IMG/VR virus record: IMGVR_UViG_3300032243_001266
Location: 1-58,702 of that record
Source of the DNA: a virus
Lineage: Duplodnaviria > Caudoviricetes
DNA length: 58,702 nucleotides
Direction: 5' to 3' (one strand)
The position numbers and the translations under genes were made by a program. The notes beneath the pieces are model-generated. The model saw only the letters and a program-made list of their open reading frames with translations, was not told the origin of the DNA and ran no database searches. Positions 4,680 to 50,613 of this stretch are shown here, piece after piece (within the stretch, counting starts at the first letter, position 1; each line of letters starts with the position of its first letter).

Positions 4680-5192
4680 ATGAAAAAGTTAATTGTGGTT
4701 TTATTATTTCCTTTGTCATCATTTGCTCAAAGTGATTTTATAATTGAATTGTGTAATGAATCTGGTCCGGATTTACATTCTGGAGTAAGTAATAAACCTT
4801 TGTTGTGTGTAAAAGATAAAAATACCCTGTTTGGTCTTATGTTCTCTTTTCAAGAGCAACAAGATTCAGTTTGGTATAGAGGTATGATGGTAATGTCAAA
4901 AGGGATAGGCCAAAATATTGATAGTGCTAAATTGGAATTTACTTTTGAAGATGGGGAAATATTGAAACTTGAGGCATGGATGAACGTAGGATATTCAACT
5001 TGTTCTCACTTTGATTATTCCGGAGAGTATTTTGGCAAGTTACTTGAAAAGAAATTGATTAACATGAAATATACCAATTTAGGAACGGGAGAATATATTT
5101 CATATGATTTGAAAGAAAATCAGTTTAATTTTTTTGTAGAGGTCAAGGAGGCAATAGACAAAAAGAAAATATCTTGGAGAAACTGTCTTTAA
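4680..5192 (+). CDS. exported (Sec/SPI) protein, function unknown
   Basis: MKKLIVVLLFPLSSFA|Q signal peptide with Gln at +1. Confidence 0.75.
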   Translation: MKKLIVVLLFPLSSFAQSDFIIELCNESGPDLHSGVSNKPLLCVKDKNTLFGLMFSFQEQQDSVWYRGMMVMSKGIGQNIDSAKLEFTFEDGEILKLEAWMNVGYSTCSHFDYSGEYFGKLLEKKLINMKYTNLGTGEYISYDLKENQFNFFVEVKEAIDKKKISWRNCL

Positions 5193-5215
5193 TTAATAAT
5201 CTAAAAAACAAAAAC

Positions 5216-5452
5216 ATGAAAAAAGCAATTTTAGCATTGGCAGCAGCCTCAATAGCATTGGCCATGATGGCATCATGCAAAAAACAAACTTGTAATTGCG
5301 GAACAATTATGAGTGATAGAGTATCGGATTATTCAGTAGTAATTAGGAATGATTGTAGTAGTAATGAGAAACGCTTTTATCTTGAACCTGGAGATTGGAT
5401 GAGCGCCTATGTTGGTACTGAATATTGTATAACAAACGTAACAAGTTGGTAA
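5216..5452 (+). CDS. small Cys-rich lipoprotein
   Basis: MKKAILALAAASIALAMMAS|C lipobox; start refined from 5174 to ATG 5216. Confidence 0.75.
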   Translation: MKKAILALAAASIALAMMASCKKQTCNCGTIMSDRVSDYSVVIRNDCSSNEKRFYLEPGDWMSAYVGTEYCITNVTSW

Positions 5453-6513: not shown

Positions 6514-7503
6514 TTATAAAGTTTTTCCTTTATAAATTCTTTTGTTGTGAAAGTTATAATCGCTTCCGTTTTCATCCAATTCTACATAGGCATAGCCATG
6601 ATTCCATTTATTTAGTGGCATATAGGCCGGATTCAACTCGGACAAACAACCAATTGACCATGTAGTTGTAATCTTGCCATTCATATCAGATTCGGTATGT
6701 TCACTTGTCGCATGATTGTGGCCTTGAAATGCCGATACTTTACCTCTCAAATATAAACCTCTTGCAACGTTCACAGGAGCTGAAATTCCGCCGATATATT
6801 CGTGACCATGTATTCCATTCAAATCATTCAACTTCATGTACTGATTAGCCTCTATCATCGTTATATCATATTCCCTGGCCTTGATGATATTAGCAAATTC
6901 AAAATCTTCAATTCCGGCAATCTCATGGGCTTTTTGAAAAAGGAAATGCTGATACCTTAGTTCGTGATTCCCAAGTTTAAAGTAAATTTTACAATTCAGA
7001 ATGGTTTTTAACTTATCAAAAAATAATTTCAAGCTATCCAATTCGTATTTGAAATCTCTCTTTTTAGGATCTTTAATAAATCTACTTAATTGGTGGCAAT
7101 CAATGGTATCTCCATTAAGCAACAAAGCATCAACCTTTTCTTTTTTTAAACTGGTTAATGCTTCTGTTAATGCGTCAAGTGAATGATAAGGCAAATGAAC
7201 ATCTGATAATATGCCTACTTTTTTGTGACGAGGAAATACAAAAGGAGTATAAATTGTTTCTTCTGACTCTGGTAACTTATAAGGATTGTATGGCCTTGGT
7301 TCTTCTCTTATGTATTTTTGATTAGCTAATACATCTTTGCCCTTGGTTTCATTTTTACCTTCAATTCGTCTTAGTATGGATCTTGCATTTTCAACATCTT
7401 TGAATTGAAGCTTGTGTTCTTTAAAAATAATTCTTGCCAACTTCAATGATGGCATATCAGGAAACTTGTCTCGGTAGCTTCTTGCGATTTCAGATTTGTT
7501 CAT
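6514..7503 (-). CDS. calcineurin-like metallophosphoesterase
   Basis: SDVH, NGDTID, GNHE, HGHE, GHNH motifs; start refined to ATG 7503 (MNKSEI). Confidence 0.88.
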   Translation of the reverse strand: MNKSEIARSYRDKFPDMPSLKLARIIFKEHKLQFKDVENARSILRRIEGKNETKGKDVLANQKYIREEPRPYNPYKLPESEETIYTPFVFPRHKKVGILSDVHLPYHSLDALTEALTSLKKEKVDALLLNGDTIDCHQLSRFIKDPKKRDFKYELDSLKLFFDKLKTILNCKIYFKLGNHELRYQHFLFQKAHEIAGIEDFEFANIIKAREYDITMIEANQYMKLNDLNGIHGHEYIGGISAPVNVARGLYLRGKVSAFQGHNHATSEHTESDMNGKITTTWSIGCLSELNPAYMPLNKWNHGYAYVELDENGSDYNFHNKRIYKGKTL

Positions 7504-7930
7504 AATATAGTTTTGACTCTTCATTACGCCTTCGCCTAAGACCTTTCTCAAATGGACTACCTTTGTTTACCCAACGAAGAAGTTCATCTTTTATTGTGGG
7601 GTCATTAGGATTTATAAAAGCTTTTTTATATAAAGTAGATTTTAATAAATTACCACATCCTACATTATAAACAAAACTCATTAGCGCGTCAAATTGATTC
7701 TGATTCAATTTCAATTTAGCCAAACAATATTCTTTATTCTTTAATTCCCAAAACATTAATTTCTCGGCATCTTCATGGGTTATTTTCTCGCCCATTTTTA
7801 TTTTTTTGCCATCTGACCACATAGTGCTTCCAAATCCAATTGTGACTTTTCCAGCCGGGCATATATATGCGTCTGTGAAAAAGCCTTCAAACTTTTTTAT
7901 TAAATTAACTGCTCTTTGTGATGTTGTCAT
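7490..7930 (-). CDS. endolysin, GH24 phage lysozyme
   Basis: IKKFEG-x-YICPAGKVTIGFGST, NQNQFDALMSFVYNVG, GLRRRRNEE. Confidence 0.95.
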   Translation of the reverse strand: MTTSQRAVNLIKKFEGFFTDAYICPAGKVTIGFGSTMWSDGKKIKMGEKITHEDAEKLMFWELKNKEYCLAKLKLNQNQFDALMSFVYNVGCGNLLKSTLYKKAFINPNDPTIKDELLRWVNKGSPFEKGLRRRRNEESKLYYEQI

Positions 7931-8481
7931 TTTCTAATTATATGTAGAATTAAAGACAATCCAAATAAAAGTAATAAAATTATTACCCACCACAATAAAT
8001 TGATTCGTTTTACGTTGGCGGATTCATAGTCACTTCTCAGCCCATTTATTTCAAAATCTTTTGATTGAATTAAAGCCGTATCTTTTACTTTATACGTTTT
8101 ATAAACAATCGGAATCTGCCTATTTAATGTTTCCTGGAGTCCTTCAATAAATTTATAAGAATCTTTAAGTTCGTTTTTTAATTTAGATATTTTAGTAAGA
8201 CAATCATTGTCTCTTAAATAAACCGTATCATTTAATACTTTATCAATAGTATCTTTTTTGATGATTATTTTTTTATTCAATGAATCAATGATAACTTGCC
8301 ATCTTACTTTTTCTATTGTATCAATTCGTATAATTGAAGAATCGCATGGATAGTTTTTGGCGACAAACTTTGTAACAACTTCTGGATGTTTTAGCTGAGC
8401 CTCAATTAAATCACGCTGGGCTTGTCTTTCAGAATAACAACCAAAAACCAAAAATAAAAATACAAACAATAAATATTTCAT
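7927..8481 (-). CDS. putative unimolecular spanin
   Basis: N-terminal lipobox (FLVFG|C) plus C-terminal TM (LLWWVIILLLLFGLSLIL); lies between holin and endolysin. Confidence 0.7.
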   Translation of the reverse strand: MKYLLFVFLFLVFGCYSERQAQRDLIEAQLKHPEVVTKFVAKNYPCDSSIIRIDTIEKVRWQVIIDSLNKKIIIKKDTIDKVLNDTVYLRDNDCLTKISKLKNELKDSYKFIEGLQETLNRQIPIVYKTYKVKDTALIQSKDFEINGLRSDYESANVKRINLLWWVIILLLLFGLSLILHIIRK

Positions 8482-8705
8482 TTTGATTCTTTTGACAAAA
8501 ACGAACCTTCACTATTTGATAAATAATTCTTGATGATATAAGCAAGTGCAGCCGTTAATGATGTAGTTGCAATTTGTTTCCAATTAAAAACCAATTCTCC
8601 GGAATCCATTGTATTATAAAGAAAAGTAACCAATGCAGTTAAAATAGCAACAATCAATCCTTTAAAAAAATCTTGAATGTTCAATGATGCAAATGCTGAT
8701 TTCAT
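8478..8705 (-). CDS. putative holin
   Basis: 75 aa, two TM segments, in lysis cassette. Confidence 0.7.
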   Translation of the reverse strand: MKSAFASLNIQDFFKGLIVAILTALVTFLYNTMDSGELVFNWKQIATTSLTAALAYIIKNYLSNSEGSFLSKESK

Positions 8706-8842
8706 AATTTATCGTTTTGATTTAAAAAATATAAAAAAATTATACAAGACAAATAGGCTATAAATCTAATCCAAATCTCATCTACAAAATAGATACAAAG
8801 CATTACAATAAATGCGGCATATATATAATCTTCACGATTCAA
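8702..8842 (-). CDS. small membrane protein (46 aa, TTG start, not in ORF track)
   Basis: MNREDYIYAAFIVMLCIYFVDEIWIRFIAYLSCIIFLYFLNQNDKL; overlaps both neighbours, stop forms ATGA with holin start. Confidence 0.5.
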   Translation of the reverse strand: MNREDYIYAAFIVMLCIYFVDEIWIRFIAYLSCIIFLYFLNQNDKL

Positions 8843-9041
8843 GTTTTTGTATTCTAATTTCGTGATCTTTCAAATCATCTTTTATTACCTCAATATCTTT
8901 TTTAAACCCTACATCAGAAAGCAATATGGATTGTACTATTTTTTCAAATTTGTCAAGTCTTGATATAAATAATTTCGCAACAAAAACTATTAATCCTATA
9001 ACAACTCCGATTAATAAATTTGTTAATTCTCCATTACTCAT
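8832..9041 (-). CDS. single-TM plus coiled-coil lysis-associated protein (holin/antiholin-like)
   Basis: N-terminal TM, C-terminal DHEIRIQKLE coil; first gene of lysis cassette. Confidence 0.6.
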   Translation of the reverse strand: MSNGELTNLLIGVVIGLIVFVAKLFISRLDKFEKIVQSILLSDVGFKKDIEVIKDDLKDHEIRIQKLES

Positions 9042-9164: not shown

Positions 9165-12100
9165 TTATTGCGAATACGCTTTGGTAAGTGTCATCAAAGT
9201 ACTTGCATAAATGGTAGCAGTATTTGATGTGACGGTTGCCCCTTGCAAAATTACGTTACCGGGGGTAGAGCTTGTCACTAAAATTCCTTCAATCCTAAAT
9301 GGAACCTCAGTAGCTACAGCAGTAGAGAATCCAGTTGATGGATATAAAGTATTTATAGCAGTTATAAATGCGTTTTGAATTGTATTCAAGGCGTTTGCTC
9401 CATAACTAAAATTGGCTTTTATAGTAGTTCCTGCGGGAGCTGAGATACTTACTTTTAAACCAGTAGCAGATGTAGCTTTTGATGCAGATCCGTTAATCAT
9501 TATCCTATAAGCAGTATTAGCTGCTACTGCTATGGATAGATTTGTACTAACCGCAGTAGTACTTGATGTTGTAAAGTCAGATCCTAAATAAGCTATTGTA
9601 GGTACACTTTGAACATAATTAGCAAGCATAGCTGCCGTATCAGATATGTTCAATTTTAGGTTTATTCTATTGCTCAAAGATGCGGTATCCGTCTTTCTTA
9701 GATATTTACTAAGCATGGTAGCCGTGTCGCTAATATTTACTTTTAAGTTTATTCTATTGCTCAAGGATGCCGTATCTACCTTTCTTAAATATGGACTAAG
9801 CATAGTTGCGGTATCTCCTGGTCCAATCTTACTATTAAATGTAGTCCAATTTGCTGATGACAAAGCACCTCTATTTGTAGCTGATGCTGTAGGTAAATTA
9901 AATGTATGGGAAGTGCCTGTAGACACTATCTTAAAATCAGTACTATCTGTTCCCGTTACCATTGTTTGTGCTGATCCTGTAAGCGAATTAATAGCGGTAA
10001 TTCCCGTGCCTGCCAATATACCAGCTTGTTGAGTAATTGTAAAAATTGTAGATTGTACAGCAGGATGAACTAATGGTGTAGTTTGTGAAGCTTCTGCTCT
10101 TATGCTCATGTTGATATCTGCACTTCCCCAATATAATTCTATTGTATCTCCAGCTACTAATTGAATAACATAATTCCATGCTGCCATCATATATGCTGGG
10201 TTATTACCTTGTAAAGATATTACTCCAGCACTTGCAGTTATATCAGTTCCATTTTTTCTTAGCCAAAAATTCACATAATCAACACCTGCATCTGATTTAT
10301 CCATTTGAGAAGAAAATTGCAAATTGTAAATACCCGTATTAGCACATACAATTTGAGAAGTCATTGTTCCTGTATATGTAGCAGATGTTTTAAGTTGAGA
10401 AACTGAAACTTCGTAAGTACCTATTCCCCCACTGCCAGATATAAATGCCGATATGAAAGTCCCTGCGGTTATACTGCCGTTTGTTAATACCATTCCTACC
10501 TTAATCTTACCAGATGTTAATGATGTTACATTTAAAGTAGTTCCTGCACCAGCACCTCCATTATTAATAGTACCTACAAATACCGCAGTTTGTGTATTAA
10601 GAGAAAACCCGTTGGCTAAGTCTGTTGTATTAAATTTTACTGCTCTTGGTGTATTTGCTGTTGGATTGTCTTGTGTAGTGCTATCTGATATTGATAAATA
10701 ATATCCGCTTGCAGGAGGATTAGTTCCCACACTATCTTTTATAGCATATCTTGTATTCCCTATGTAGTAAATGATTGAATCCTTACCTAATGTTCTTGTT
10801 ATGTTATTTACCCATTTGTTTGTAGTATCTATTTTTCTTAGGTATGGACTAAGCATAGACGATGTATCTGAAATATTCAATTTCAAGTTTATTCTATTGC
10901 TTAATGATGCGGTATCTACTTTCCTCAAATAAGGACTAAGCATGGAAGATGTATCAGATATGCGAACATACTTTCCCGACAATCCACTAACTGATGTATC
11001 AGCTATCAAAGTTCCACTTGTTGTAATAGTTCCTCCACTTAATCCATATCCAGTAGCTACAGATGTAACTGTACCAGACCCTGTTGAAATAGTTATATTG
11101 CCCGTTGAATCTGGAGAGTTGCCATTAATTTTTGCTATTAATGTTCCTGTTGTATTGGGAAGTGTTAGTGTATTATTTGTAAGTGTATTGGGCGGCTGTA
11201 CATAAAATGTAGTCCCACCACCGCTTAATTTTTTAAAGAAAAGTTTTTCTGATGTTGCTCTGAACTCTTTATCCAAGTCAGATGAAGATAACTTTAATAT
11301 TGGCAATAGCTTATTGATATAAGTAGTTTTGTCAAATTCAAGTGTAGCGTAGTTGGTTGTAAATCTTTTTTCAAGTCCCACAAAATATGGAGATGTTGAT
11401 CCCCTAATTGAGTCCTTTGAACTTAATACGGCTACGGTATTTGCGCTTGCGCCTGTGTTTACACTATCAATAATGAGAACTGATTTTTGATAAGAAAGAT
11501 TCCCTTTATTTAGAACAGTTTGTAAATTTGGCACTAATGTTATTGTAGCGCTTATATTATTTTTTTTAACTGAAAATGTTGTATCTGTTAAAGCGGTAAC
11601 TGATTGTACATATTTAGAGCTATCAGCAGCTCTCATATATCTATTATTAAGTGTGATTGTATCCGCTGATATTGTACCACTTGTCGTTATTGGATTTGGT
11701 GATGCGATAATTCCATATCCTTGAGATATGCTTGTAACTGTTCCGTTTCCACCTCCTGCATCTCCATAATAAAGATATTTCGTTATAGTATCAAGTAATA
11801 AATATTTTTTAGCGCCTGCGCTTCCTCTCACTATTCCGGAACTTGGTATTCTCATTCTTACTGAATTGAATGTAATGAAGTCAAGTTCTTTTTGATCAAT
11901 ATTTCCAATATAAGGAGGTATGGCATCTGTATTCCCGCCAACAAGCCAAGAGTTTCCACCGCCGCCGCCAGATTGAGATAAATTAATCCACTTGGTTGCG
12001 CTTGCGTTTCTCATATACAAACTATCTCCAACTCTAATTACAGCGCCAGCGTAATTTTTACCATAAGGAGAAATGTTGGCTTTAGCTGTATCTGAATAGT

Positions 12101-12254
12101 ATGGAACAATAAATGAGCTATCAGCCTTGAATCCACCTCTTGAAGTTACAAGTGTGGTTGGCGCACCAATGGTTTGATTAATTGGATATTGCGGTTGGGC
12201 ATAGCAAATTGCACTAATTGTCATTAATGCTAACGCAAGTAATAATCTTTTCAT
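9165..12254 (-). CDS. tail-fibre-like S/T/G-rich repeat protein with N-terminal signal peptide
   Basis: GTVTS-x-GYG-x-ITTSGT repeats, DTAxMLSPYLRK repeats, position between tail and lysis genes; MKRLLLALALMTISAICYA|Q N-terminus. Confidence 0.7.
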   Translation of the reverse strand: MKRLLLALALMTISAICYAQPQYPINQTIGAPTTLVTSRGGFKADSSFIVPYYSDTAKANISPYGKNYAGAVIRVGDSLYMRNASATKWINLSQSGGGGGNSWLVGGNTDAIPPYIGNIDQKELDFITFNSVRMRIPSSGIVRGSAGAKKYLLLDTITKYLYYGDAGGGNGTVTSISQGYGIIASPNPITTSGTISADTITLNNRYMRAADSSKYVQSVTALTDTTFSVKKNNISATITLVPNLQTVLNKGNLSYQKSVLIIDSVNTGASANTVAVLSSKDSIRGSTSPYFVGLEKRFTTNYATLEFDKTTYINKLLPILKLSSSDLDKEFRATSEKLFFKKLSGGGTTFYVQPPNTLTNNTLTLPNTTGTLIAKINGNSPDSTGNITISTGSGTVTSVATGYGLSGGTITTSGTLIADTSVSGLSGKYVRISDTSSMLSPYLRKVDTASLSNRINLKLNISDTSSMLSPYLRKIDTTNKWVNNITRTLGKDSIIYYIGNTRYAIKDSVGTNPPASGYYLSISDSTTQDNPTANTPRAVKFNTTDLANGFSLNTQTAVFVGTINNGGAGAGTTLNVTSLTSGKIKVGMVLTNGSITAGTFISAFISGSGGIGTYEVSVSQLKTSATYTGTMTSQIVCANTGIYNLQFSSQMDKSDAGVDYVNFWLRKNGTDITASAGVISLQGNNPAYMMAAWNYVIQLVAGDTIELYWGSADINMSIRAEASQTTPLVHPAVQSTIFTITQQAGILAGTGITAINSLTGSAQTMVTGTDSTDFKIVSTGTSHTFNLPTASATNRGALSSANWTTFNSKIGPGDTATMLSPYLRKVDTASLSNRINLKVNISDTATMLSKYLRKTDTASLSNRINLKLNISDTAAMLANYVQSVPTIAYLGSDFTTSSTTAVSTNLSIAVAANTAYRIMINGSASKATSATGLKVSISAPAGTTIKANFSYGANALNTIQNAFITAINTLYPSTGFSTAVATEVPFRIEGILVTSSTPGNVILQGATVTSNTATIYASTLMTLTKAYSQ
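9630..9815 (-). repeat. intragenic peptide repeat cluster 2
   Basis: DTATMLSPYLRKVDTASLSNRINLKVNIS / DTATMLSKYLRKTDTASLSNRINLKLNIS / DTAAML. Confidence 0.85.
10820..10960 (-). repeat. intragenic peptide repeat cluster 1
   Basis: DTSSMLSPYLRKVDTASLSNRINLKLNIS / DTSSMLSPYLRKIDTT. Confidence 0.85.
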
Positions 12255-12261
12255 AAAAAAA

Positions 12262-12675
12262 TTAAATAAATGGATATAATTGAAAAAGCTCTCCGGTTAC
12301 AGCTGCGGGATTACAAGTGAATATACCCGTAGTTTTATTCCATGAGAAATAAGATGCCCCAGTATTTATTATTGATTGAGGCACATTATTTCTTACGAAT
12401 AAAAGATTGTAACCTATGAATGTTGGTATGGTAACCGTGCTTTGTCCATTAACCATGAATGAAGAACCAGATACTTCAAATTCAATTGGATTAGGCGTTG
12501 CGCCTGGGTTTATTGGAACTACCGACCCACCACCCGTGCCGGTTATTATGAATTGACCTTCTAAGGCAAACTTACCACAAAGCCAATACAAATAATTAGC
12601 AACACCTCTCGCAGTAGGATTTTGGAAAGATGTTACTCCGTCTGTAAATGCAGTTGTACTTACTTGTAGTGACAT
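12262..12675 (-). CDS. putative virion structural protein
   Basis: 137 aa, beta-rich C-terminal part, in tail block. Confidence 0.6.
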   Translation of the reverse strand: MSLQVSTTAFTDGVTSFQNPTARGVANYLYWLCGKFALEGQFIITGTGGGSVVPINPGATPNPIEFEVSGSSFMVNGQSTVTIPTFIGYNLLFVRNNVPQSIINTGASYFSWNKTTGIFTCNPAAVTGELFQLYPFI

Positions 12676-12685
12676 TTTTTATTTA

Positions 12686-13384
12686 TTATGGGTAAATTCT
12701 AATTTCTATTGTTGCTTTAAAAAGCAAATCATTTGTATCCGTATCGGTAGATGTTTTTTTGGATTTCAATGTTATTTGAGATGAACTATTTCTTTCCCAT
12801 CCAAGCGAAACGCCAGCATTAACGCCAAATCCGGTTGGCATATAACCTGGAGTTAAAAACACAGCAATTTTATTATTTGTCCAAGCAGCACTTGAAAATA
12901 TTGTGTAATTGCCAGCAGAAGTATATCCAAATGTAGGAGTAAAACCCAAGGTATTTACAAGCGTATAGTCAATAGTTGGGGCATTTGTACCAGTTTGGCT
13001 TATCACCGCTGTATAAACACCATATCCCAAATTAACTATTGGATTTCTTGGGTCTGTGCTATCAACAGAAAGTGTGCTACTGATTATAGATTGCACAATA
13101 CCTCCGGTTAAATCCCAATTAGATCCATTATATTGATATATTTCGTCAGTATCGGTTGAAATATAAATAGATCCTGTTGTCTCAGCAAGTGGACGATTAG
13201 AAAAAATATCAGAGGCTATTTGAGGAGTTCCTTGAGCATTCAAAACCGAGTTCTCATTAGCCAATACAGCAATGTCTGAAGTAGTTATTTTTACTGTTGT
13301 TGCGCCTTGATCTACTGGTATTAATTCAGAACCATCCAATGGTGTTGTACCGGCGGGTAATTGGTTTATTTGAACGTTAGCCAT
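12686..13384 (-). CDS. putative fibre/spike protein
   Basis: N-terminal MANVQINQLP...ELIPVDQGATTVK motif typical of phage fibre N-termini; S/T/G-rich. Confidence 0.65.
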   Translation of the reverse strand: MANVQINQLPAGTTPLDGSELIPVDQGATTVKITTSDIAVLANENSVLNAQGTPQIASDIFSNRPLAETTGSIYISTDTDEIYQYNGSNWDLTGGIVQSIISSTLSVDSTDPRNPIVNLGYGVYTAVISQTGTNAPTIDYTLVNTLGFTPTFGYTSAGNYTIFSSAAWTNNKIAVFLTPGYMPTGFGVNAGVSLGWERNSSSQITLKSKKTSTDTDTNDLLFKATIEIRIYP

Positions 13385-13386
13385 AT

Positions 13387-13926
13387 TTATTGCGTTATTA
13401 GGTTGAGATTATTTTGGGTTATTATTACTTCATCTAATTCGGTAGAAATAAAATACACATCAGTTATCACGCAGTTGGGAGATATTCCATTTATCAAAGC
13501 CCCAAGCCCTTCTGGAGCTTCTATTGTAATTACATTGTTTACATTTGTTATTACATAACCATAAGAGTTCAATGCAAGTTCTGCTGCTAAATTTGCGGCA
13601 GTCAAATTAATTGTTGTATCAGATGCGCTTATTGTATATGTACCAAGCGAAATGTTGCCTTGAATTGGGTCATTAATATAAACCGTTATTGTTTGCCCCT
13701 CATCTCCTATTGTATCTATTGATATGGTTGCCGTAGCTCTTACCTCTGTAATGTCTGGGAATCCAGCCCAATTCCATCTCAGAGCATCTGTAACAGTAGC
13801 TATTGTAGTTGCAGCTGTATATGTTTTCCTTGGACCAAACAAAGAGCCATCTGCTTGATAATTCAAGGCAAGAGGCGTGCTTATATCGCCCAAGTCAATT
13901 ATATCTGGTATTGATAGTTGTGCCAT
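13387..13926 (-). CDS. putative virion structural protein
   Basis: 179 aa, beta-rich, ends in ISTELDEVIITQNNLNLITQ. Confidence 0.6.
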   Translation of the reverse strand: MAQLSIPDIIDLGDISTPLALNYQADGSLFGPRKTYTAATTIATVTDALRWNWAGFPDITEVRATATISIDTIGDEGQTITVYINDPIQGNISLGTYTISASDTTINLTAANLAAELALNSYGYVITNVNNVITIEAPEGLGALINGISPNCVITDVYFISTELDEVIITQNNLNLITQ

Positions 13927-14444
13927 TAGAAGAAATAAGCTTGGTTTTGTGCCATATTTGTTGCCCTATTCAAACACGCTTGCGATGCAAATATATCATT
14001 TCCAATTTCAACTGAATTTATTGCTCCAATTATATTAGTCCAAAATATTCCCACATTGCCCCAATAGTTGTTGTCTTGGATAATGTTATATGTCTGCGAT
14101 TGCAACTGAATTAAATAGTAAAGAAATTGCTTGTTGAACTCGCTAAAACAATAGTTATTATTAAGCTCATACAAAATGTTATTTGAAGCATCTAACCATT
14201 CAACTCTTATATTCGCTGCCGTATCTTGTGTCAAGATGTTTAAAGATATTGGATTATCAACTAAAGGCCATTCAATGTAATTAGTTGTAGTTCCAGATGG
14301 CACTATGTAGTTTCCAAAACAATCCGTAATGTATATTCTTCTTGAATCAATAGCACCATCGCTTCCTGTACTTGTATCTGTGATAATTACAAACGCCGGA
14401 TTAGCTGATGTTTGAGCTACTGTAAAATTTTGTGAGAATGGCAT
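13926..14444 (-). CDS. putative tail structural protein
   Basis: 172 aa, first gene behind promoter at 14461. Confidence 0.6.
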   Translation of the reverse strand: MPFSQNFTVAQTSANPAFVIITDTSTGSDGAIDSRRIYITDCFGNYIVPSGTTTNYIEWPLVDNPISLNILTQDTAANIRVEWLDASNNILYELNNNYCFSEFNKQFLYYLIQLQSQTYNIIQDNNYWGNVGIFWTNIIGAINSVEIGNDIFASQACLNRATNMAQNQAYFF

Positions 14445-28749: not shown

Positions 28750-31700
28750 TTATCTTGCGTTTAGGGGTGAATTAATATAGTTCAAAGATACGGTATTAAG
28801 GAAATAAAAATTAGTTGCGCTGTCCTTTTGGAATCTAACTACCAAATAATTTCCGTGCATTGTTTGACCATTGATAAGGCCCCCTGGGCTATTTTTATCC
28901 CTCAAGATTGCCGATGTATATTGCCCTTCCAATTCTACAAATCTTGCCGCTACAATCTCGCTTTCTTGATTCGTAGAGCCATATGTCATTAATTGAGATG
29001 TAATAGAAGGGCAATACCATGCCGAATTTGATGTTTGGAATATAGCCAAATATGTTTTTCTATCTATTGCCCTATCATTAAATGCTACATCCACATAAGA
29101 CCCATACTGAACTCCATAAAAGTTACAATAAGTACCCCCAGCATGAATCCACAAACTGCCGTCCTTAAATGTAATATAAGTGTTATTTAAACAAGCTATG
29201 TTTTCGGGATGGTATGAGGCGAATGTTTCAAACCCTTGTTTTGCATCTCTTGAGTCCAAGAAGATGAGAGTATATGGGTTTTGGATAAGATCATTTCCAT
29301 CATATATGGCATCCATTGAAATGATATACTTATTTGTATAAGCATCATATCCTCCATAAACTGTTGGATATCCATCTGCCGGAGCCGCTTGAGATTGAGC
29401 TATTTTGTATTGCTTTAAATTAGGTACAAAGAAAGCATTCATTTTGTAAAGGATGGATATTGGAGTAATGCCATCGTTACTTAATCTACAAACCACTCCT
29501 TTATTATCATCTATAAAAAACTTAGCGTGCTTACCATAAGCAAAACTTTCTGGTACATTACCTATTCCGTATTGACCTATGTATGGATATACTATTTTAT
29601 TAAGAAGCGTATCGCTTTGCGCAGATAATGGGTTGCCTGCCGTATCTTTTACAATTTGTGTCAATACAGTTACAACGCCTACGTCAAACTCTTGGAAAAC
29701 ATATTGATTCCTTCCTTCAATAAACATTTTTTTAATAGAACCTCTGCTTCTATCATATACATCAAAATTTTCTTCGTAAAATCTATTTATATTATTTATA
29801 GTAGTTCCAGCTTGAAACTCTCCCCCAAATCTTATTAAGGTTGGATTGAATGATTGTGCAGCATTTGGGTCATATCTCCAAACTCGTCCATTTGGTGAAG
29901 CTGAACTTTCATAATTATCAGAAAAATTAGGATCTATAATACCTTGTTTAATTACTCTTGAATCTGTAATTTCTATGTTTAATTCCAACAAATCGCCTTT
30001 GTAATTATTTAATCCCCAGCCAACTTTTGCCATATTTAAAGATGGGGTATAAATACAATCTATAACAACAACTTTTTCTTGATTTGCAATTAACCTATCG
30101 GTATTTGCAAAAATTGTAGCTCCCAATATTTGTATAGACCCAGTACCGGTAACTCCATTCCATTCATTTGATATTAATTGTATATTAGCAAAATTAGCAG
30201 ATGGTTTTAAACGCATTGTACCTTTTACTCTAAATGAAGGAGGTGTTGATGGGGTGTTAATTAAAATGGGATATGCATCATTAGTAAATGCTGTTGTAGA
30301 TGTTACGTTTTGTGGAGTATAGTCTGGATTATTTGCTGTGTTGTAGGTAAGTGTAGCTAAAAGATAAAATGATGTAAAATTTGAGGTAATTCCAGATACA
30401 GGATTATGAATCCAAGTTGATTTGCCACCTATTGGATAGGTTCTGTATCTAAAAAAACTATCTCCTTTATACAAATCAAACAATGCAGGAGTTACCAAAT
30501 TGCTTGTTTGATTTTGATTTTTTCCTAAATGGTATGCTTGCATCGTTCCAGCATCTCCTATATTATACTTTTCGCCAAATTCATAATATATAGTATTTTG
30601 GTCATTAAAGGTTGTTTGAGGCGTATATATTTCTATAAGATAATTTGAATAAATAGGATTGCCAAAATCAAAAGACCCAGAAGTTTGAGGCAAATATATT
30701 TTTAAAAAAAATCCATTTACAATAGTTGCATTTATAGTTGGATTTGTAACCGTTTCTAAAATTTGAAAATCTTTTTCATCGGACAATCCATATATATTAC
30801 TTGTGCCTCCGGCATTAGAATAAAGTTTTACGAATCTAACTCTATCGCCTGGGGTAAATTCATAACCAAGTGATTTTATTGATGGATTAGATGAAATATA
30901 TAATAATAAGTTGTTTATAGAAATATAAGCATACTTATATCCATATTCGTTGTTTATGAAATCCTTATATGTGGCATCGCTAACCCAATATAAAAAATTA
31001 GATTTTGTAAGATTTTTAGTTCTTACTAATTCAAAATAACTTGCCCAAATAGGCGGCCTACTATTAATTTGAAGCCTTTGTTCTGGTATATATACATCAT
31101 TAGCTGATGGAGGAAAAGTTTCATCATATTGTTGTGTTTGAAATGAACTGCTTAAAGTTAACACAACACCATTTGTTCTTCCTTTATCATCAAAATAAAC
31201 TACACCATAAGAGTATTTTGAAAACCAATCATAAGCCAAAATAGAGCTTCTATTTTCTGCAAAATATTCAGATAAATAAAAAGTAGGCAAATAAGGAAAC
31301 AATACAGGCGTTGGAGCAACTACCAATAAATTGCCGTCCGGGTCTAAAGAGACTATATATCCAAGACCAGTAAAATAATTAGATATGTCTAATCTTAAAG
31401 AGTTCTGAGTTGCTCCCGTAGCAATTATTGTAGTGCTGACTGTTACGTTATTATCAATATAGTATATTGTATATTCATCTCCAATTGTAGGCGTTCCAGC
31501 TACAATTATTTTTAAAGAACCTTCAAAGACAATTAAATCTGGCGTTGTAACTAAAACAAGCGCTTGTTGATTTGAAGTTCCCGCTAATCTATTATTGTTT
31601 AATATGCTTGTTGAATAAATACCAACAACCAAATCATATCCTTCTGTTATTGCTCCATAATCTAAAACGTTTCCATTTGGCAAACTTTGCGCGTAAGCTA

Positions 31701-32655
31701 TTTGAGGAACATTATCAAATGGCTGTATGCTTTCTTTTATAGATATTGGTATATAACTTTCATTATTTAAAAAATTAAATTGAATTGTAGCATTGTCTGA
31801 AATAGATAAACTGGGCTTATCAATAACTTTTACTAAAAAATAATCAGACCAAACATTTCCATTAGATTCGCATCCAAGAATTTCTATTTTTTTTACGTTG
31901 GGCTGTCCGCTATTAAATATTATTAAAATACTTGAATTTCTTGTAGGATCAGTTGAAATTGCTTGGTCGGCATAATTTTTTGGAAGTGTCAATTCGCATT
32001 GAGCGCTTGTAACAGATTTTTCTAAATCATCATATACATATCTATATTTAAATTTGAAAAGTTTTCCAACCAAATTATTTACAGTAACATTAGCGTTATC
32101 TTTATATACGCATAATGGAGGCATTGATGGTGGCTCTTTGGCTACATCAAGATAACTTCTTTGTATTACCCCGTAGGCTCCTGTTGTAGCCGTAAGTACA
32201 TTTATTTTAGAAGGAGGATTAATTCCATCTGTCCAAAAAAGCAAATCGCCTTGATCATCTTCTCTATAAACTATATCTATGTGATTGATTCGGTAAGATG
32301 GGTCAAAATTCAAAACGCTGATATTATCAGTATCAGTCAAATCCTCCATGACTATAACAATAGAGCCGGTATTTTGGTCATAGTAGCTAATTCTATTGTA
32401 GCCATCGCTATTCCATGTAAAATAATAAAGTCTATTTCTTACTCTATCTGAAAAATTGCCAATTACCTTATTCGTTCCATTTGGCAAAAAATTTGTTATT
32501 TCGTAGTTTCCATTTATGTTAGACAATACTTCGTCTTGTCCTTTTCCTTCTGCATCTCTTGTAATATTCAAAGCATCAACAAAGTCCCCTTGAGGGACTC
32601 TGTATGTACTATCGTCTTGATTAAGTTTACCACCAAACGTTCTAATTTCAATCAT
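28750..32655 (-). CDS. tail stabilization / nozzle protein (P22 gp10-like, crAss-like muzzle)
   Basis: 1301 aa, N-terminal GKLNQDD...GDFVDALNI, YGIGNVPESFA motif, follows ring genes. Confidence 0.75.
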   Translation of the reverse strand: MIEIRTFGGKLNQDDSTYRVPQGDFVDALNITRDAEGKGQDEVLSNINGNYEITNFLPNGTNKVIGNFSDRVRNRLYYFTWNSDGYNRISYYDQNTGSIVIVMEDLTDTDNISVLNFDPSYRINHIDIVYREDDQGDLLFWTDGINPPSKINVLTATTGAYGVIQRSYLDVAKEPPSMPPLCVYKDNANVTVNNLVGKLFKFKYRYVYDDLEKSVTSAQCELTLPKNYADQAISTDPTRNSSILIIFNSGQPNVKKIEILGCESNGNVWSDYFLVKVIDKPSLSISDNATIQFNFLNNESYIPISIKESIQPFDNVPQIAYAQSLPNGNVLDYGAITEGYDLVVGIYSTSILNNNRLAGTSNQQALVLVTTPDLIVFEGSLKIIVAGTPTIGDEYTIYYIDNNVTVSTTIIATGATQNSLRLDISNYFTGLGYIVSLDPDGNLLVVAPTPVLFPYLPTFYLSEYFAENRSSILAYDWFSKYSYGVVYFDDKGRTNGVVLTLSSSFQTQQYDETFPPSANDVYIPEQRLQINSRPPIWASYFELVRTKNLTKSNFLYWVSDATYKDFINNEYGYKYAYISINNLLLYISSNPSIKSLGYEFTPGDRVRFVKLYSNAGGTSNIYGLSDEKDFQILETVTNPTINATIVNGFFLKIYLPQTSGSFDFGNPIYSNYLIEIYTPQTTFNDQNTIYYEFGEKYNIGDAGTMQAYHLGKNQNQTSNLVTPALFDLYKGDSFFRYRTYPIGGKSTWIHNPVSGITSNFTSFYLLATLTYNTANNPDYTPQNVTSTTAFTNDAYPILINTPSTPPSFRVKGTMRLKPSANFANIQLISNEWNGVTGTGSIQILGATIFANTDRLIANQEKVVVIDCIYTPSLNMAKVGWGLNNYKGDLLELNIEITDSRVIKQGIIDPNFSDNYESSASPNGRVWRYDPNAAQSFNPTLIRFGGEFQAGTTINNINRFYEENFDVYDRSRGSIKKMFIEGRNQYVFQEFDVGVVTVLTQIVKDTAGNPLSAQSDTLLNKIVYPYIGQYGIGNVPESFAYGKHAKFFIDDNKGVVCRLSNDGITPISILYKMNAFFVPNLKQYKIAQSQAAPADGYPTVYGGYDAYTNKYIISMDAIYDGNDLIQNPYTLIFLDSRDAKQGFETFASYHPENIACLNNTYITFKDGSLWIHAGGTYCNFYGVQYGSYVDVAFNDRAIDRKTYLAIFQTSNSAWYCPSITSQLMTYGSTNQESEIVAARFVELEGQYTSAILRDKNSPGGLINGQTMHGNYLVVRFQKDSATNFYFLNTVSLNYINSPLNAR

Positions 32656-46774: not shown

Positions 46775-47548
46775 TTATGGTTTATATACTCTTTGTTTTG
46801 CCCAATCTTTTATCAATTCTGGCAATGGTTCGTCTATTGGTTTTAAATCTTCTTTTCCAAACCAAAGCTCTGGCTGAAAAATATCACTACCATCCAATTT
46901 TACATCGTGGCTCCCCATTTCAAAAACACCCTCTTGCATATTTATTACTTTAGCCTTCATTATATTTCTATCCCTAACAAACCCCATGTGATACATTCTT
47001 ATATCATTCAATGCAGAAAAATCTGCTGTTGGTACTGCAAGGCTTTCCGCATCTCCGTAAGACCTATATTGTGTTTTTGCAAGTCTTATTATTTCGGTAG
47101 AACATGGCTTTCTATCTTGAGGAACATCTAATCTCAAATAGGGGCTTTGCCAAAGATTTATTCTTGTACAGAAATAAGCATCTTCTCCAGACTGAATTAC
47201 ATCGCGAACTTTTTGATAACAATTCTCATGCAAAATTTCATCAGCTTGTTGATAAAAATTATAGTCTGTTTCCAAACGAGAAATGGCAATATCGGTAAAA
47301 TAACAAAGCTTGCTTTGCGCCTTACCCTGCTGCGCATCCCATTCTTCTTTAGGCAAATAAGTAACTAACAAATTCTTATTTTCAATCTCAAGCTGTTGTA
47401 TTATTTTTTCTGTTTCATCTTCACCTTCAACAACAACACAACTTACTTGATCACAAAATTGAAGTAATGATAATATACTTTCTCTAAAGCAATAATCATA
47501 CTTTACTCCGTTTCTTACAAATATGCTTCCGCCAAGCGTTTTACTCAT
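46775..47548 (-). CDS. glycosyltransferase, GT2-like (GT-A fold)
   Basis: GSIFVRNGVKYDYCFRESILSLL...DQV...EDET; QADE DxD-like motif; YHMGFVR. Confidence 0.85.
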   Translation of the reverse strand: MSKTLGGSIFVRNGVKYDYCFRESILSLLQFCDQVSCVVVEGEDETEKIIQQLEIENKNLLVTYLPKEEWDAQQGKAQSKLCYFTDIAISRLETDYNFYQQADEILHENCYQKVRDVIQSGEDAYFCTRINLWQSPYLRLDVPQDRKPCSTEIIRLAKTQYRSYGDAESLAVPTADFSALNDIRMYHMGFVRDRNIMKAKVINMQEGVFEMGSHDVKLDGSDIFQPELWFGKEDLKPIDEPLPELIKDWAKQRVYKP

Positions 47549-48141
47549 GATAAATGTTTTAATTCTTCTTTTACTCTTTCAAAATCTTTTTCAATGTCTT
47601 TGCAAGTCCAAAAGAAAAAAGCCCCAAGTCCATTGAACGAAAGCGTTGGATGCCATTGAGGAAATACAACGTAAGCCCATTTGCCTGGCATCATTTTTTC
47701 AAGTTTTTCGGGCGTCCAAGCAGATTTATGAGAATCTGGATTGTTATCATTAGGATCCGTTGTCATACAATATTCCCCAAGAGGCGTAAACCAAATTTGC
47801 TTCTTAGCTACTTTTGAAGTCAATTCTAAAAATTCCAATGCGTCTTTTTCTCTAAAATGTTCTATTGTATCTGTGCTAATAGAAACATCAAATTTATTTT
47901 TTTTCTTTTTCGCTTCTTTTAAATACTCAATAACATCCATCACTAACAATTCGCCTTCACCAACAAGATGCCTATCTATACAATCTACATGAAGTCTTGA
48001 TTTAAAATCCATTCTTCCGGTTTGAGGTGCGCTTCCACAAGCCAAGTCAATCATGGATTGATTTGAAATATCTCCGCATATTGCGGCCAATACTTCTATT
48101 TGAAGTTCTCCACTTCCATTTTGATTAAATTCTAATTTCAT
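47545..48141 (-). CDS. class I SAM-dependent methyltransferase
   Basis: MIDLACGS motif I, FDVSISTDTIEH, FTP, HKSAW. Confidence 0.85.
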   Translation of the reverse strand: MKLEFNQNGSGELQIEVLAAICGDISNQSMIDLACGSAPQTGRMDFKSRLHVDCIDRHLVGEGELLVMDVIEYLKEAKKKKNKFDVSISTDTIEHFREKDALEFLELTSKVAKKQIWFTPLGEYCMTTDPNDNNPDSHKSAWTPEKLEKMMPGKWAYVVFPQWHPTLSFNGLGAFFFWTCKDIEKDFERVKEELKHLS

Positions 48142-48142
48142 T

Positions 48143-49555
48143 TTAATTTTTTTTATTTTCTAAATTATTTATAGCATCTATTACTTGTTCTGTTTCTGCT
48201 ATGCAGCACGGCGGCTTTTCTTTATCAATTCTACATTCCATACCTCTTACCGTACCAGAGTTTTCATGATAGCAATGTTGATATATGCAAGGTTGCTGTA
48301 TGACTTCAAGACCATTCATATCCGGATGAACATATTCTGGATTTACGCTGCCGAAAAAACCAACGCATGGTTTATTGTAAGCCATTGCTATATTTAATGG
48401 ACCACTATCAATACCCAAAAATATATCACATCCAGCTATTACAAATTTAAGAAAAGCAAGTGACGAGGCATTTATTTCTATTCCAACTGATTCGTGCCTT
48501 TCTTTGCCTATTTGAAATACCGTATATCCGTAAGCTTCTAAATGTTTTTTTACCGCCTTCCAATTTACATTGTAAACATTTCTGTAAGGCATATCCTTAT
48601 TGTCAATATGCAATATTGCATACTTTTTAAACAGCTTTGTTTTTTCATTTACAAATGGATATATTATTGGCCTTGAAAGTTTATAGTCCTTTATGCCACA
48701 AAACTCAAAATAACTTTTAAGTCTGTTTTGCCTTGGTTTTACTTCATAAGCAAAATCTAAGTTTATTACTTTTTCGGGCGTTATTCTACTTGCGTCAAAT
48801 TGAGAAATGTGTTTTATTGGGAAATAATGATGTGTAAACAATTCAAAAATATCAACTGGCGTATCTAATACAACATTATATCCTTTGTGCGCATAATATC
48901 TCATAATAGGCTCTACCAAAAGCACATCTCCTATTGCTGCCGTTCTTTTTATTACTACTGTTGGCTGATATGGTGCATGAAAATTACCATGAAATCCAAA
49001 TGTCTTTTGATTTGGCTCCCTCAATTCATATGCAAAAGATTCGGCAAGATTTTGTGGAGCAAATTTAATTCCATAGGTTTCCTCCAAATATGGGCGATAG
49101 GTTCTGCAAATAGTATCATCTTCTGGATGAAGCGCCGAAACAAAATCATCGTTTGCTAAAATATCTAATAAAATCTTTGACCTTAAACTAAAGCCGCCAT
49201 TACCTACATTACGCCCATCTGAATATAACCACGGCGAACCAATATAATCATATTCAAGAAACTCTTCTTTCCAAGACGTTTCATCTAAGATATATCCATC
49301 CCATTGAACCAACAAACAATGAGTTGTATCAACATACTTACTTAGTTCTTTTATACAAAAATGGCTATACTCTTCTTTTGATTTTATAGAAGGAATAATT
49401 ACAGCTTCAACACCATCAACCTCAATTTCTATATCGGTTAAAAATAATGTTCTGCTTGGGCTTACTTTTTCTTTGCATTTTTGCAATGCAGATATAGCCT
49501 TTCCGTAATTGTAACAATCAATACAAACTATCGTCAGCTCTTTTATATGCTTCAT
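48143..49555 (-). CDS. DUF5672-like domain fused to GT9-like (GT-B) glycosyltransferase
   Basis: N-half QWDGY...YDYIGSPW...VGNGGFSLRS...PED; C-half RTAAIGDVLL...FLGIDSGPLNIA...FFGSVNP. Confidence 0.85.
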   Translation of the reverse strand: MKHIKELTIVCIDCYNYGKAISALQKCKEKVSPSRTLFLTDIEIEVDGVEAVIIPSIKSKEEYSHFCIKELSKYVDTTHCLLVQWDGYILDETSWKEEFLEYDYIGSPWLYSDGRNVGNGGFSLRSKILLDILANDDFVSALHPEDDTICRTYRPYLEETYGIKFAPQNLAESFAYELREPNQKTFGFHGNFHAPYQPTVVIKRTAAIGDVLLVEPIMRYYAHKGYNVVLDTPVDIFELFTHHYFPIKHISQFDASRITPEKVINLDFAYEVKPRQNRLKSYFEFCGIKDYKLSRPIIYPFVNEKTKLFKKYAILHIDNKDMPYRNVYNVNWKAVKKHLEAYGYTVFQIGKERHESVGIEINASSLAFLKFVIAGCDIFLGIDSGPLNIAMAYNKPCVGFFGSVNPEYVHPDMNGLEVIQQPCIYQHCYHENSGTVRGMECRIDKEKPPCCIAETEQVIDAINNLENKKN

Positions 49556-49748
49556 CTTTTTTTATTTTATATGTGCCGTTATTCCAAATTCTTATTTGAT
49601 CAGTAGTAAAATGCTTAACAACGCCGCCATTTTCAAGAATAACGGTCACTTCATCATTTTCCAAAAACCCATTTGACTTTATGTACCATACAATTCCATC
49701 GCCCAATGGCGTTGTGCAAGGCGTTGGGTGTGATGGTTCGTATATCAT
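49518..49748 (-). CDS. small phage protein, function unknown
   Basis: 76 aa, TPLGDG...END...VKHF. Confidence 0.65.
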   Translation of the reverse strand: MIYEPSHPTPCTTPLGDGIVWYIKSNGFLENDEVTVILENGGVVKHFTTDQIRIWNNGTYKIKKDEAYKRADDSLY

Positions 49749-50545
49749 TTATTAAAGTGTTTATGAGTAAAATATTCTAAAGCTGTTTGATGATAAAAAG
49801 CATATCCATTAGCTCCGGTAGGAAATGTATTGGGAAATTGTGTACACAACTCAAGTATTCTTGGCAACTTCATTGCATCTGCTAAGTGCCATAAAAAACT
49901 TTGATTATAAATGCCAATTTTGTAACACTTCATCATCATAGCTAATTCCAAAAAATCTTTTGATTCAAGATGCTGAACGTTTAAATCAAATGTTTTTTCA
50001 AACAATTCTTTTTCATTTTTAGTTCCTGCAAAAACAATATTATCATCATACTTTTTTAAGAAGAAATAATTAACGTAAGCGTTGTTATATCTTTCTGTTC
50101 TATTGACAAGTATTTTTTCTCTTTGAACATTTATTGTAGGAACTTCTATCCACGGCTTAGATAAATCGCAACTCATTTCTGGAAATATAGAAAATGCGTA
50201 ATGATGAATAAGTCCTGCCGGCATTGGTATCATTCGGCTATCACGAGTAATATCTATATTAAAATCTATTTCTTGTCCTCTAAAAATTTCAAAACTTTCA
50301 ATATATTCTTGATATTCTATAAGTGGTTTTAGCCTATTAAACATTTCTTGATTCATGCAAACTTGTTGCCCTTGTTCATCTTTTACAGGGCTTACGGCGC
50401 CATTATAGTAAAAAGCTGGCAAATCTAAAACTTGACAAATGGTTACTTTTTTTCCAAATGACTTCCATAATTGTTTAAGACCAGGAAGCAATAAAATCAA
50501 ATCGCCCGCATTATAGCTATGTTTTATCGTAATAGTATTACCCAT
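49745..50545 (-). CDS. GT-B-fold (GT9-related) glycosyltransferase-like protein
   Basis: HSYNAGDLILLLP N-terminal motif, PWI, YNQS...LADAMK; start refined to ATG 50545. Confidence 0.6.
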   Translation of the reverse strand: MGNTITIKHSYNAGDLILLLPGLKQLWKSFGKKVTICQVLDLPAFYYNGAVSPVKDEQGQQVCMNQEMFNRLKPLIEYQEYIESFEIFRGQEIDFNIDITRDSRMIPMPAGLIHHYAFSIFPEMSCDLSKPWIEVPTINVQREKILVNRTERYNNAYVNYFFLKKYDDNIVFAGTKNEKELFEKTFDLNVQHLESKDFLELAMMMKCYKIGIYNQSFLWHLADAMKLPRILELCTQFPNTFPTGANGYAFYHQTALEYFTHKHFNK

Positions 50546-50613
50546 AATCATTTGCAAATAAAACACTATTTTTACATTCTAACAATCATTCTTTCACAAA
50601 AAAATTATTTTTT

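Follow-up and report, generated by a model that had tools for sequence, protein, structure and literature searches.

A predicted secretion signal and an excess of O-glycosylation motifs in a fibre-like protein of a putative Bacteroidota phage

Introduction

The assembly of tailed phages is taught as a wholly cytoplasmic process. Here, we describe a fibre-like protein of 1029 amino acids (aa) (P0001, hereafter the fibre), whose gene lies in the 58,702-bp IMG/VR record IMGVR_UViG_3300032243_001266. This complete virus record with inverted terminal repeats was analysed at its full length and is called the window below. The fibre appears to begin with a host secretion signal and carries about four times the number of O-glycosylation motifs expected by chance, so it probably matures outside the cytoplasm. 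To our knowledge, the only other virion glycosylation is that of actinobacteriophages, which is carried out by cytoplasmic phage enzymes. In Bacteroidota, the motif D-(S/T)-(A/I/L/V/M/T), called sequon below, is O-glycosylated in the periplasm in soluble regions of non-cytoplasmic proteins (PMC12871550). It is enriched above chance in exported proteins, its sites are usually almost fully occupied, Ser is also seen at the third position of glycosylation sites, and engineered motifs and proteins of other species are glycosylated as well (PMC12871550). The known substrates of general O-glycosylation are host proteins, unlike a phage fibre, and the word "phage" is absent from this review.

Ordinary fibres of Bacteroidota podophages (gp085 and gp087 of the Cellulophaga phage phi38:1, the fibre of the uncultured podophage MW202828, and signal-less fibres in IMG/VR) adjoin lysis genes and have a mosaic build, as does the fibre of the window. 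The central C1q-like module of the latter (aa 510-809) is 76-85% identical to that of the signal-less IMG/VR fibres. However, ordinary fibres begin with a cytoplasmic docking domain (MARIKNT..., MPKINTY..., or MARISTYVIDG...), whereas the window's fibre begins with a signal followed by an N-terminal domain (N-domain), and ordinary fibres show no sequon excess.

Three large, adjacent proteins of the Cellulophaga phage phi18:3, a podophage of Flavobacteriia, have signal-like N-termini ending in (S/A)Q, as the fibre does (gp085, gp086, and gp087; NC_021794, our L049, 2892-8584). They also adjoin lysis genes, and in the record each is labelled a virion structural or tail protein, with the remark "based on experimental MS/MS proteomics analysis" (MS/MS, tandem mass spectrometry). 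They were not among the eight tblastn matches of the window's fibre. The premise of the initial annotation of this DNA, that virion proteins of tailed phages lack signal peptides, is too absolute in view of these three signal-bearing proteins annotated as detected in virions.

The MAT fibres of Bdellovibrio bacteriovorus (Caulton et al. 2024, PMC10769870) resemble the window's fibre in having a signal, directly followed by a conserved beta-rich N-domain, and a trimeric shaft of mosaic build that resembles phage tail fibres and ends in varied tips. They are encoded by the bacterium for its own surface, whereas the fibre described here is phage-encoded. Their N-domain comprises ~130 aa. Many MAT fibres carry an S74 chaperone-protease, whereas no Peptidase_S74 match was obtained for the fibre in a Pfam scan. 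The cited part of that paper reports no link to O-glycosylation.

Substrates of signal peptidase I (SPI) in Bacteroidota mostly expose Gln, which is then cyclised (the Q-rule; PMC5837995, PMC10653852). Phages of Porphyromonas gingivalis contain genes with Q-rule signals whose predicted cleavage exposes Gln, as in the fibre (Matrishin et al. 2023, PMC10367356). In the cited part of that paper, these genes have no assigned function, may modify the host outer membrane, and are not named as fibres; the word stem "glycosylat" is absent from the paper. A literature search, outside the coverage of which most subscription journals lie, gave no account of tailed phages whose tail fibres bear a signal, are exported, or are glycosylated by the host.

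Predicted signal peptide and its conservation

The N-terminus of the fibre, MKRLLLALALMTISAICYAQPQ, was judged from its n-, h-, and c-regions and from its conservation in homologs. The signal peptide proposed in the initial annotation, MKRLLLALALMTISAICYA|Q, was borne out: a positively charged n-region (MKR) is followed by a hydrophobic core of 13 residues and by C-Y-A, with small residues at -3/-1, directly before Gln20, and this arrangement is kept in homologs. Gln follows a small residue in all 10 rows of alignment A2, and residues 2-19 were modelled as a helix. The start is fixed by the ATG, which 7 nt separate from the stop codon of the preceding gene, and by protein conservation that begins directly behind the signal. 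These features support in silico that the fibre carries a Sec/SPI-type signal following the Gln+1 rule of Bacteroidota.

A lipoprotein signal, cleaved by signal peptidase II, was considered and rejected: there is no lipobox, Cys17 is preceded by S-A-I, and the Cys is missing from other type-1 signals. Cargo of the type IX secretion system carries a C-terminal sorting domain (CTD) of the TIGR04183 or TIGR04131 type. This assignment was also rejected, no family being found in whole-protein scans of NCBIfam (E ≤ 1) and Pfam (E ≤ 0.01), in which a very divergent CTD could still go unseen.

A protein search with the fibre gave 1179 matches, all mosaic. The signal test was passed by 97 of the 120 best homologs, 84 of which have the pattern small-x-small-Gln; among the remaining 23, truncated gene calls of the same N-domains predominate. 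Behind these signals, at least six different mature N-domains were found, all of ~75 aa and ending in a Gly run. A Cys pair is kept in 13 of 13 proteins of type 2, in 29 of 29 of type 3 (eight of them with a third Cys), and in 24 of 26 of type 4, and types 1, 5, and 6 contain no Cys. The N-domain of the window's fibre belongs to type 1, for which the residues Q27, G30, T34, L35, G40, D45, I49, P51, D55, T56, A59, N60, Y68, G70, R82, and W89 are invariant in A2. A profile of the signal and the type-1 N-domain matched 1134 clusters among 1.84 billion representatives at E ≤ 1e-3, of which 522 remained at E ≤ 1e-10. A further 141 proteins were inspected. The signal test was passed by 133 of them, with small-x-small-Gln in 108, and the other eight have 5'-truncated or over-extended starts; none of the 141 has the N-domain behind a non-signal N-terminus.

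Enrichment of the O-glycosylation motif

The fibre is rich in Thr, Ser, Ala, and Gly. Its residues include, exactly as had been counted by hand, 41 Asp, 25 of which are followed by Ser or Thr, 20 in D[ST][AILVMT] and five in DSS or DTS. The 20 sequons lie at aa 55, 77, 155, 198, 224, 263, 281, 382, 447, 476, 492, 507, 524, 703, 770, 814, 827, 843, 856, and 872, and the DSS/DTS sites at aa 45, 211, 419, 434, and 463. When the fibre was shuffled 10,000 times, the mean number of sequons was 4.8 (standard deviation [sd] 2.0, maximum 13), and no shuffle reached 20. The enrichment does not vanish without the two repeat blocks (aa 430-480 and aa 810-886): the rest of the fibre has 13 sequons, compared with a mean of 3.7 (sd 1.8, maximum 11; 0 of 10,000 shuffles). 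Within the blocks, repeat units at aa 434, 447, 463, and 476 and at aa 814, 827, 843, 856, and 872 follow one another at 13 or 16 residues, in agreement with the spacing first noted. By region, two sequons fall in the N-domain, eight in the shaft (aa 101-479), three in aa 480-560, one in the neck, five in the helical repeats, one in the C1q-like domain, and none in the C-terminal sandwich.

The enrichment hinges on the third motif position. In the fibre, the ratio of observed to expected motifs was 4.17 for D[ST]Phi, compared with 0.88 for D[ST]nonPhi, 0 for E[ST]Phi, 1.24 for N[ST]Phi, 0.31 for D[AG]Phi, and 1.46 for the reversed motif. In 96 signal-bearing homologs, D[ST]Phi was 3.95-fold enriched (1663 sequons versus 421 expected) and D[ST]nonPhi stood at 0.99. 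Over the fibre and these homologs, replacement of D by E or N gave ratios of at most 1.24 and reversal of the motif gave 1.3-1.5. Among 105 long type-1 relatives, 1184 sequons were counted versus 460.7 expected (median ratio 2.5). With 97 of 120 and 133 of 141 proteins passing the signal test, homologs retain the signal and commonly also the sequons, as the initial annotation had proposed to check.

We then compared open reading frames (ORFs) of the window, using a simple set of 67 ORFs from which the endolysin ORF had been dropped by an overlap rule. The other three exported ORFs (7927-8481, 4680-5192, and 51151-52017) carry sequons, as had been stated, and do so in excess (10 versus 1.4 expected, 0 of 2000 shuffles). 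Together, the four signal-bearing ORFs contain 30 sequons versus 6.1 expected (0 of 2000 shuffles), whereas the 63 others, which include a few membrane proteins, contain 35 versus 41.8.

Signal-less fibres served as a natural control. No excess was observed in 20 signal-less fibres that share the central module (67 sequons versus 81.4 expected), nor in phi38:1 gp085 (5 versus 5.1) and gp087 (1 versus 2.9) or the fibre of MW202828 (3 versus 3.4). The lipoprotein of MW202828 has six sequons versus 0.7. Within the shared module, aa 703-705 are D[ST]I in the fibre and eight other signal-type proteins and D[IV][IV] in all 24 others (22 with a visible signal-less N-terminus and two cut at the contig end). 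These in silico results indicate that the sequon excess is real, is motif-specific, and goes with the signal. With 20 motifs, 4.2 times the expectation, and a non-cytoplasmic location suggested by its signal, the fibre would be expected to be glycosylated, because the motif is glycosylated in the periplasm of Bacteroidota.

Fold and modules of the fibre

The model of the whole fibre has a mean predicted local distance difference test (pLDDT) score of 60.3 with long low-confidence stretches in the shaft, and clear fold matches came from the C1q-like domain only. This jelly roll, which forms the centre of a module (aa 510-809) also present in ordinary tail fibres, matched 4-1BBL, C1QL2/3, and ExsFA/BxpB (probability 1.00; template modelling score of the target ~0.5). 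The best viral fold matches, in BFVD, are phage fibre proteins. The gene position is likewise that of a tail fibre, at the distal end of the tail module and before the holin-like genes, the lipoprotein, and the endolysin. The C-terminal beta-sandwich, which has no sequon, is a candidate for the distal tip. No family was assigned to the fibre in Pfam or NCBIfam, PHROGs gave two matches (E 0.003-0.004), and phmmer gave none at E ≤ 1 among PDB sequences. PF26696 ("phage tail like trimerisation region", Bacteroidota) appeared among Atlas leads below 0.9 for aa 1-110; it was rejected after a Pfam scan of five listed homologs did not reproduce it.

Predicted docking partner and possible link to the virion

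Upstream of the fibre lies the gene of a 137-aa protein without a signal. The window and all four type-1 relatives found encode a domain of this type just upstream of the fibre. The two genes are direct neighbours except in L048, where they are separated by an 82-aa ORF. The 137-aa protein and the 179-aa protein encoded farther upstream are paralogs (23-24% identity). In L046 (9463-9996), L047 (9469-9996), and L048 (9093-9710), the N-part of the 179-aa type precedes the 137-aa-type domain in a single protein of 175-205 aa. The 232-aa gene located between the two paralogs in the window looks like an insertion.

A complex of three chains of the 137-aa protein and three chains of fibre residues 21-100 was modelled. 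The ipSAE scores were 0.89, 0.88, and 0.88, compared with 0.00 for the best of three controls. The partner was modelled with a pLDDT of 87, and 100% of contacts recurred across the runs. The predicted contacts involve aa 24-34, 36-37, and 39 of the fibre and aa 95-98, 105-108, 123, and 126-130 of the partner, and the modelled interface includes invariant residues on both sides. The model supports binding of the mature fibre N-terminus to the 137-aa protein.

The type of N-domain tracks the type of virion: type 1 occurs in podophages with a giant protein, type 3 in siphophages with a tape measure, and type 4 in a small phage type. Signal-bearing proteins occupy the fibre position in at least three virion backgrounds: they follow the giant-protein tail module in the window and in L045-L048, the tape measure and distal tail genes in the siphophage-type loci L033, L040, and L042, and a short structural module in L007, L027, and L041. 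The same distal gene position as in the window was found in L007, L027, L041-L043, and L045-L048. The upstream neighbours of type-3 and type-4 fibres are unrelated to the 137-aa family in profile comparisons (probability 0.04% and 0.8%). An N-domain that goes with the virion background and has unrelated upstream neighbours is as expected of a docking domain.

Some relatives encode one or two further large signal-bearing proteins directly after the fibre (L046, 13959-18188; L047, 12677-13585 and 13590-15194; L044, 11341-14103 and 14110-14733), and therefore export may cover a whole set of distal tail genes. One of these proteins begins like what we take to be a beta-helix enzyme.

Proposed maturation route and alternative explanations

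We propose, with a probability of about 0.55, that the fibre is a trimeric mosaic tail fibre of a lytic, short-tailed Bacteroidota phage that is made as a Sec pre-protein, glycosylated, and docked at lysis. The fibre would be translated from the late tail operon, exported unfolded through SecYEG, and cut by SPI after Ala19, with cyclisation of Gln20 to pyroglutamate according to the Q-rule. In the periplasm, the general O-glycosylation system of the host would modify up to 20 D-(S/T)-hydrophobic sites, and perhaps the five D-(S/T)-S sites, mainly along the shaft; the C1q/TNF-like domain and the C-terminal beta-sandwich have almost no such sites. The fibre would trimerise in the same compartment. 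Once holin, endolysin, and spanin break the envelope, it would meet the particles built in the cytoplasm, and its mature N-terminus (aa 24-39) would dock onto a trimer of the signal-less 137-aa protein. We consider export and glycosylation likely, and attachment to virions after lysis, the best-supported fate, plausible. The exported glycosylated fibre of the initial annotation is thus partly supported, in silico, as regards signal, sequon excess, and conservation. The three computational objections foreseen there did not materialise.

Several points weigh against this route. Export, cleavage, glycosylation, presence in the virion, and the time and place of docking are steps that we infer. The 137-aa partner has no signal and would therefore meet the fibre only after breach of the inner membrane, and we know of no documented two-compartment assembly of such a kind. 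The window's 137-aa protein lacks the N-part of its fused relatives, and modelled alone it gave a poor fold (pLDDT 51.7). Its best structural match was CBA120 TSP4 residues 187-250 (Z 7.6, root-mean-square deviation 1.8, 64 aligned residues), with other phage tail parts next in rank; as none of the matches reaches Z 8, they serve as a lead only. In calibration, 58 of 80 solved pairs and 2 of 110 mismatched pairs attained the mark for the docking score, counts that hold only roughly because single-chain pairs and other alignments were used there and six chains with their own alignments here. The homolog signal test is a crude one of hydrophobicity and charge, and the homolog sets consist of related sequences, not independent samples. 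The sequon ratio is below 1.5 in 20 of the 105 long type-1 relatives, so the load is common, not universal. In contrast to the window's fibre, phi18:3 gp085-087 are sequon-poor (1 versus 3.6, 1 versus 3.1, and 1 versus 2.9 expected) yet signal-bearing, so a signal is not always accompanied by a high sequon load. The contrast at aa 703-705 may be partly a clade effect. Seven of the 20 fibre sequons lie in tandem repeats. In the signal-less tape measure of L033 (1048-4692), ~15 copies of a 26-aa repeat (VNADTTELNTVQSDINKIQSKAVE...) give 21 sequons versus 5.1 expected, and therefore repeats alone can inflate counts without export. Finally, two bacterial-genome scans, one using P0001 and the other the N-domain alignment A2, gave no relative and therefore neither a prophage copy nor a named host.

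The repeat-borne sites of the fibre and of the L033 tape measure, together with the cytoplasmic location predicted for the docking partner, would suit an ordinary cytoplasmic fibre whose hydrophobic N-terminus has another role and whose sequon excess reflects structural shaft repeats. We hold this explanation to be highly improbable. The excess persists outside the repeats (13 versus 3.7), is specific to the third motif position, and recurs in three unrelated ORFs of this phage that are also exported and not in its 63 other ORFs; signal-less fibres sharing the central module show none. The Cys pairs in N-domain types 2-4 also fit oxidative folding outside the cytoplasm. An uncleaved signal-anchor would tether the fibre to the inner membrane and so keep a stock of it at the envelope until lysis, when it would be picked up or set free. 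Such an anchor would still place the sequons in the periplasm, and the positive N-terminus and 13-residue core fit a type II anchor. It nevertheless appears improbable. The core is short for a stable anchor, the predicted docking strand starts four residues past the cut site, and the small residues at -3/-1 with Gln at +1, kept in 84 of 97 and 108 of 133 proteins, fit SPI cleavage and the Q-rule (PMC5837995, PMC10653852).

If the protein is exported and glycosylated, it might also never join the particle and act as a free or envelope-bound factor: a decoy or receptor mask that would keep progeny off debris and vesicles, a barrier to superinfection, or an adhesin set free by lysis. The signal and sequons point to the periplasm and the particle is built in the cytoplasm; host recognition could be left to the 232-aa protein (12686-13384) or the 1301-aa tail protein. 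The runs of signal-bearing proteins behind the fibre in some relatives are compatible with such a factor, and Matrishin et al. (2023, PMC10367356) read the Q-rule proteins of Porphyromonas phages as host-surface modifiers. However, we regard this fate as rather unlikely. A free factor has no need for an N-domain type that tracks virion architecture, and in siphophage-type loci no long fibre-like gene other than that of the signal-bearing protein follows the tape measure and the distal tail genes. The central and distal modules have been exchanged with true tail fibres at ~80% identity, the complex model docks the fibre onto a signal-less protein of the tail module, and the 232-aa protein is missing from three of four type-1 relatives. 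By analogy, the signal-bearing proteins of phi18:3, annotated as detected in virions, also suggest a place on the particle.

What is new here is a tail fibre with a putative new route of maturation. If the periplasm-matured fibre does reach the virion, it would represent a new assembly route and the first tailed-phage fibre glycosylated by a periplasmic system of the host. The fibre shafts of the virion would then be covered with glycans made by the host, and the binding tips would remain uncovered. More tentatively, and at somewhat less than even odds, a large group of Bacteroidota phages with several virion types may use two-compartment assembly, in which host-recognition fibres that have passed through Sec, received a pyroglutamate cap, and been coated with host O-glycan in the periplasm attach by their first mature residues to an adaptor made, like heads and tails, in the cytoplasm, and do so only at lysis. 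Such a route bears on the annotation of fibres in Bacteroidota phages, including gut crAss-like phages, on phage stability, immune recognition, and host range, and on the expression and engineering of receptor-binding proteins, since products made in the cytoplasm of Escherichia coli would be without processing, disulfides, and glycans. The system is widespread and directly testable, as cultured relatives exist (phi18:3). Flavobacterium johnsoniae has a mapped O-glycoproteome.

Gene neighbourhood, host, and other observations

The features of the window are listed in Table 1. The 1029-aa ORF is present at the coordinates first given, to which its location on the minus strand has to be added. 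As originally described, the fibre is the final gene of the tail block, and the lysis genes come next on the same strand.

Table 1. Position of the fibre gene, its parts, and other features in the window
Feature	Position	Strand	Basis or remark
Fibre-like protein gene (P0001), 1029 aa	9165-12254	minus	stop codon at 9165-9167
Predicted signal peptide, aa 1-19 (MKR / LLLALALMTISAI / CYA), predicted SPI cut before Gln20	12198-12254	minus	read from sequence
Conserved N-domain of mature fibre, aa 20-100 (type 1), Gly run at end	11955-12197	minus	alignment A2
Predicted contact strand with 137-aa protein, fibre aa 24-39	12138-12185	minus	complex model interface
First repeat block, DT(S/A)xMLSPYLRK / DTASLSNRINLK, aa 430-480	10815-10967	minus	
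C1q/TNF-like jelly roll, aa 630-745, pLDDT ~90	10020-10367	minus	structure model and fold matches
Second repeat block, aa 810-886, helical in model, 5 sequons	9597-9827	minus	
C-terminal beta-sandwich, aa 887-1029, pLDDT 70-90, no sequon, one Asp	9168-9596	minus	
137-aa protein without signal, predicted docking partner	12262-12675	minus	complex model
232-aa protein, ordinary fibre-type N-terminus (MANVQINQLPAGTTPLDGSELIPVDQG...)	12686-13384	minus	only here and in L045
179-aa paralog of 137-aa protein	13387-13926	minus	N-part fused to 137-aa-type domain in L046-L048
172-aa conserved tail-module protein	13926-14444	minus	48-77% identical in four type-1 relatives
Lysis cassette directly after fibre	7490-9041	minus	
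Two one-helix membrane proteins (holin-like)	8832-9041 and 8478-8705	minus	
Lipoprotein, spanin position	7927-8481	minus	5 sequons versus 0.5 expected
Endolysin	7490-7930	minus	Pfam Phage_lysozyme, 5.3e-32
170-aa signal-bearing protein (MKKLIVVLLFPLSSFAQ)	4680-5192	plus	2 sequons versus 0.3 expected
288-aa signal-bearing protein	51151-52017	minus	3 sequons versus 0.5 expected

The portal matched 85 phage records, comprising 84 Flavobacteriaceae phages and one uncultured spring phage (23-30% identity), and the 1301-aa tail protein matched 87, comprising 86 Flavobacteriaceae phages and one uncultured spring phage (23-30% identity). The matched phages include Cellulophaga phi38:1 and phi40:1, the Flavobacterium "elemo" phages, and Maribacter and Tenacibaculum phages, and share the gene order portal, ..., protein of ~1300 aa, ..., giant protein of ~3700 aa. 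From these matches, the host is read as Bacteroidota. The Bacteroidota-type promoter pattern TTTG-N17-21-TAnnTTTG occurs six times versus 4.1 expected, a number reached by 26 of 100 shuffles, and is not evidence of the host. No tRNA was found in the window.

The N-part of the 1301-aa tail protein (28750-32655) matched the "virion structural protein" phrog_14478 (7e-69), and its C-terminus gave a weak match to the C-terminal domain of the crassvirus muzzle protein (24.9 bits, below the cut-off of 27). In a presumed glycosyltransferase cassette (46775-50566), only the ORF at 48143-49555 had Pfam matches (DUF5672, 2.6e-16; Glyco_transf_9 [GT9], 1.4e-07). Its neighbours in the cassette gave none at E ≤ 0.01, and no link was found between this ORF and the fibre. 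In a 92-aa ORF (5174-5452), a signal-like stretch (MKKAILALAAASIALAMM) starts at the internal Met15; Met15 may be the true start, which would make this a fifth exported protein.

A conserved ORF of 58-59 aa (MKHIRQI...) directly follows the fibre in L033 (10904-11083), L045 (12970-13146), L046 (13786-13962), and L047 (12497-12673). It thus spans four relatives with two virion types, and none lies between the window's fibre and its first holin-like gene.

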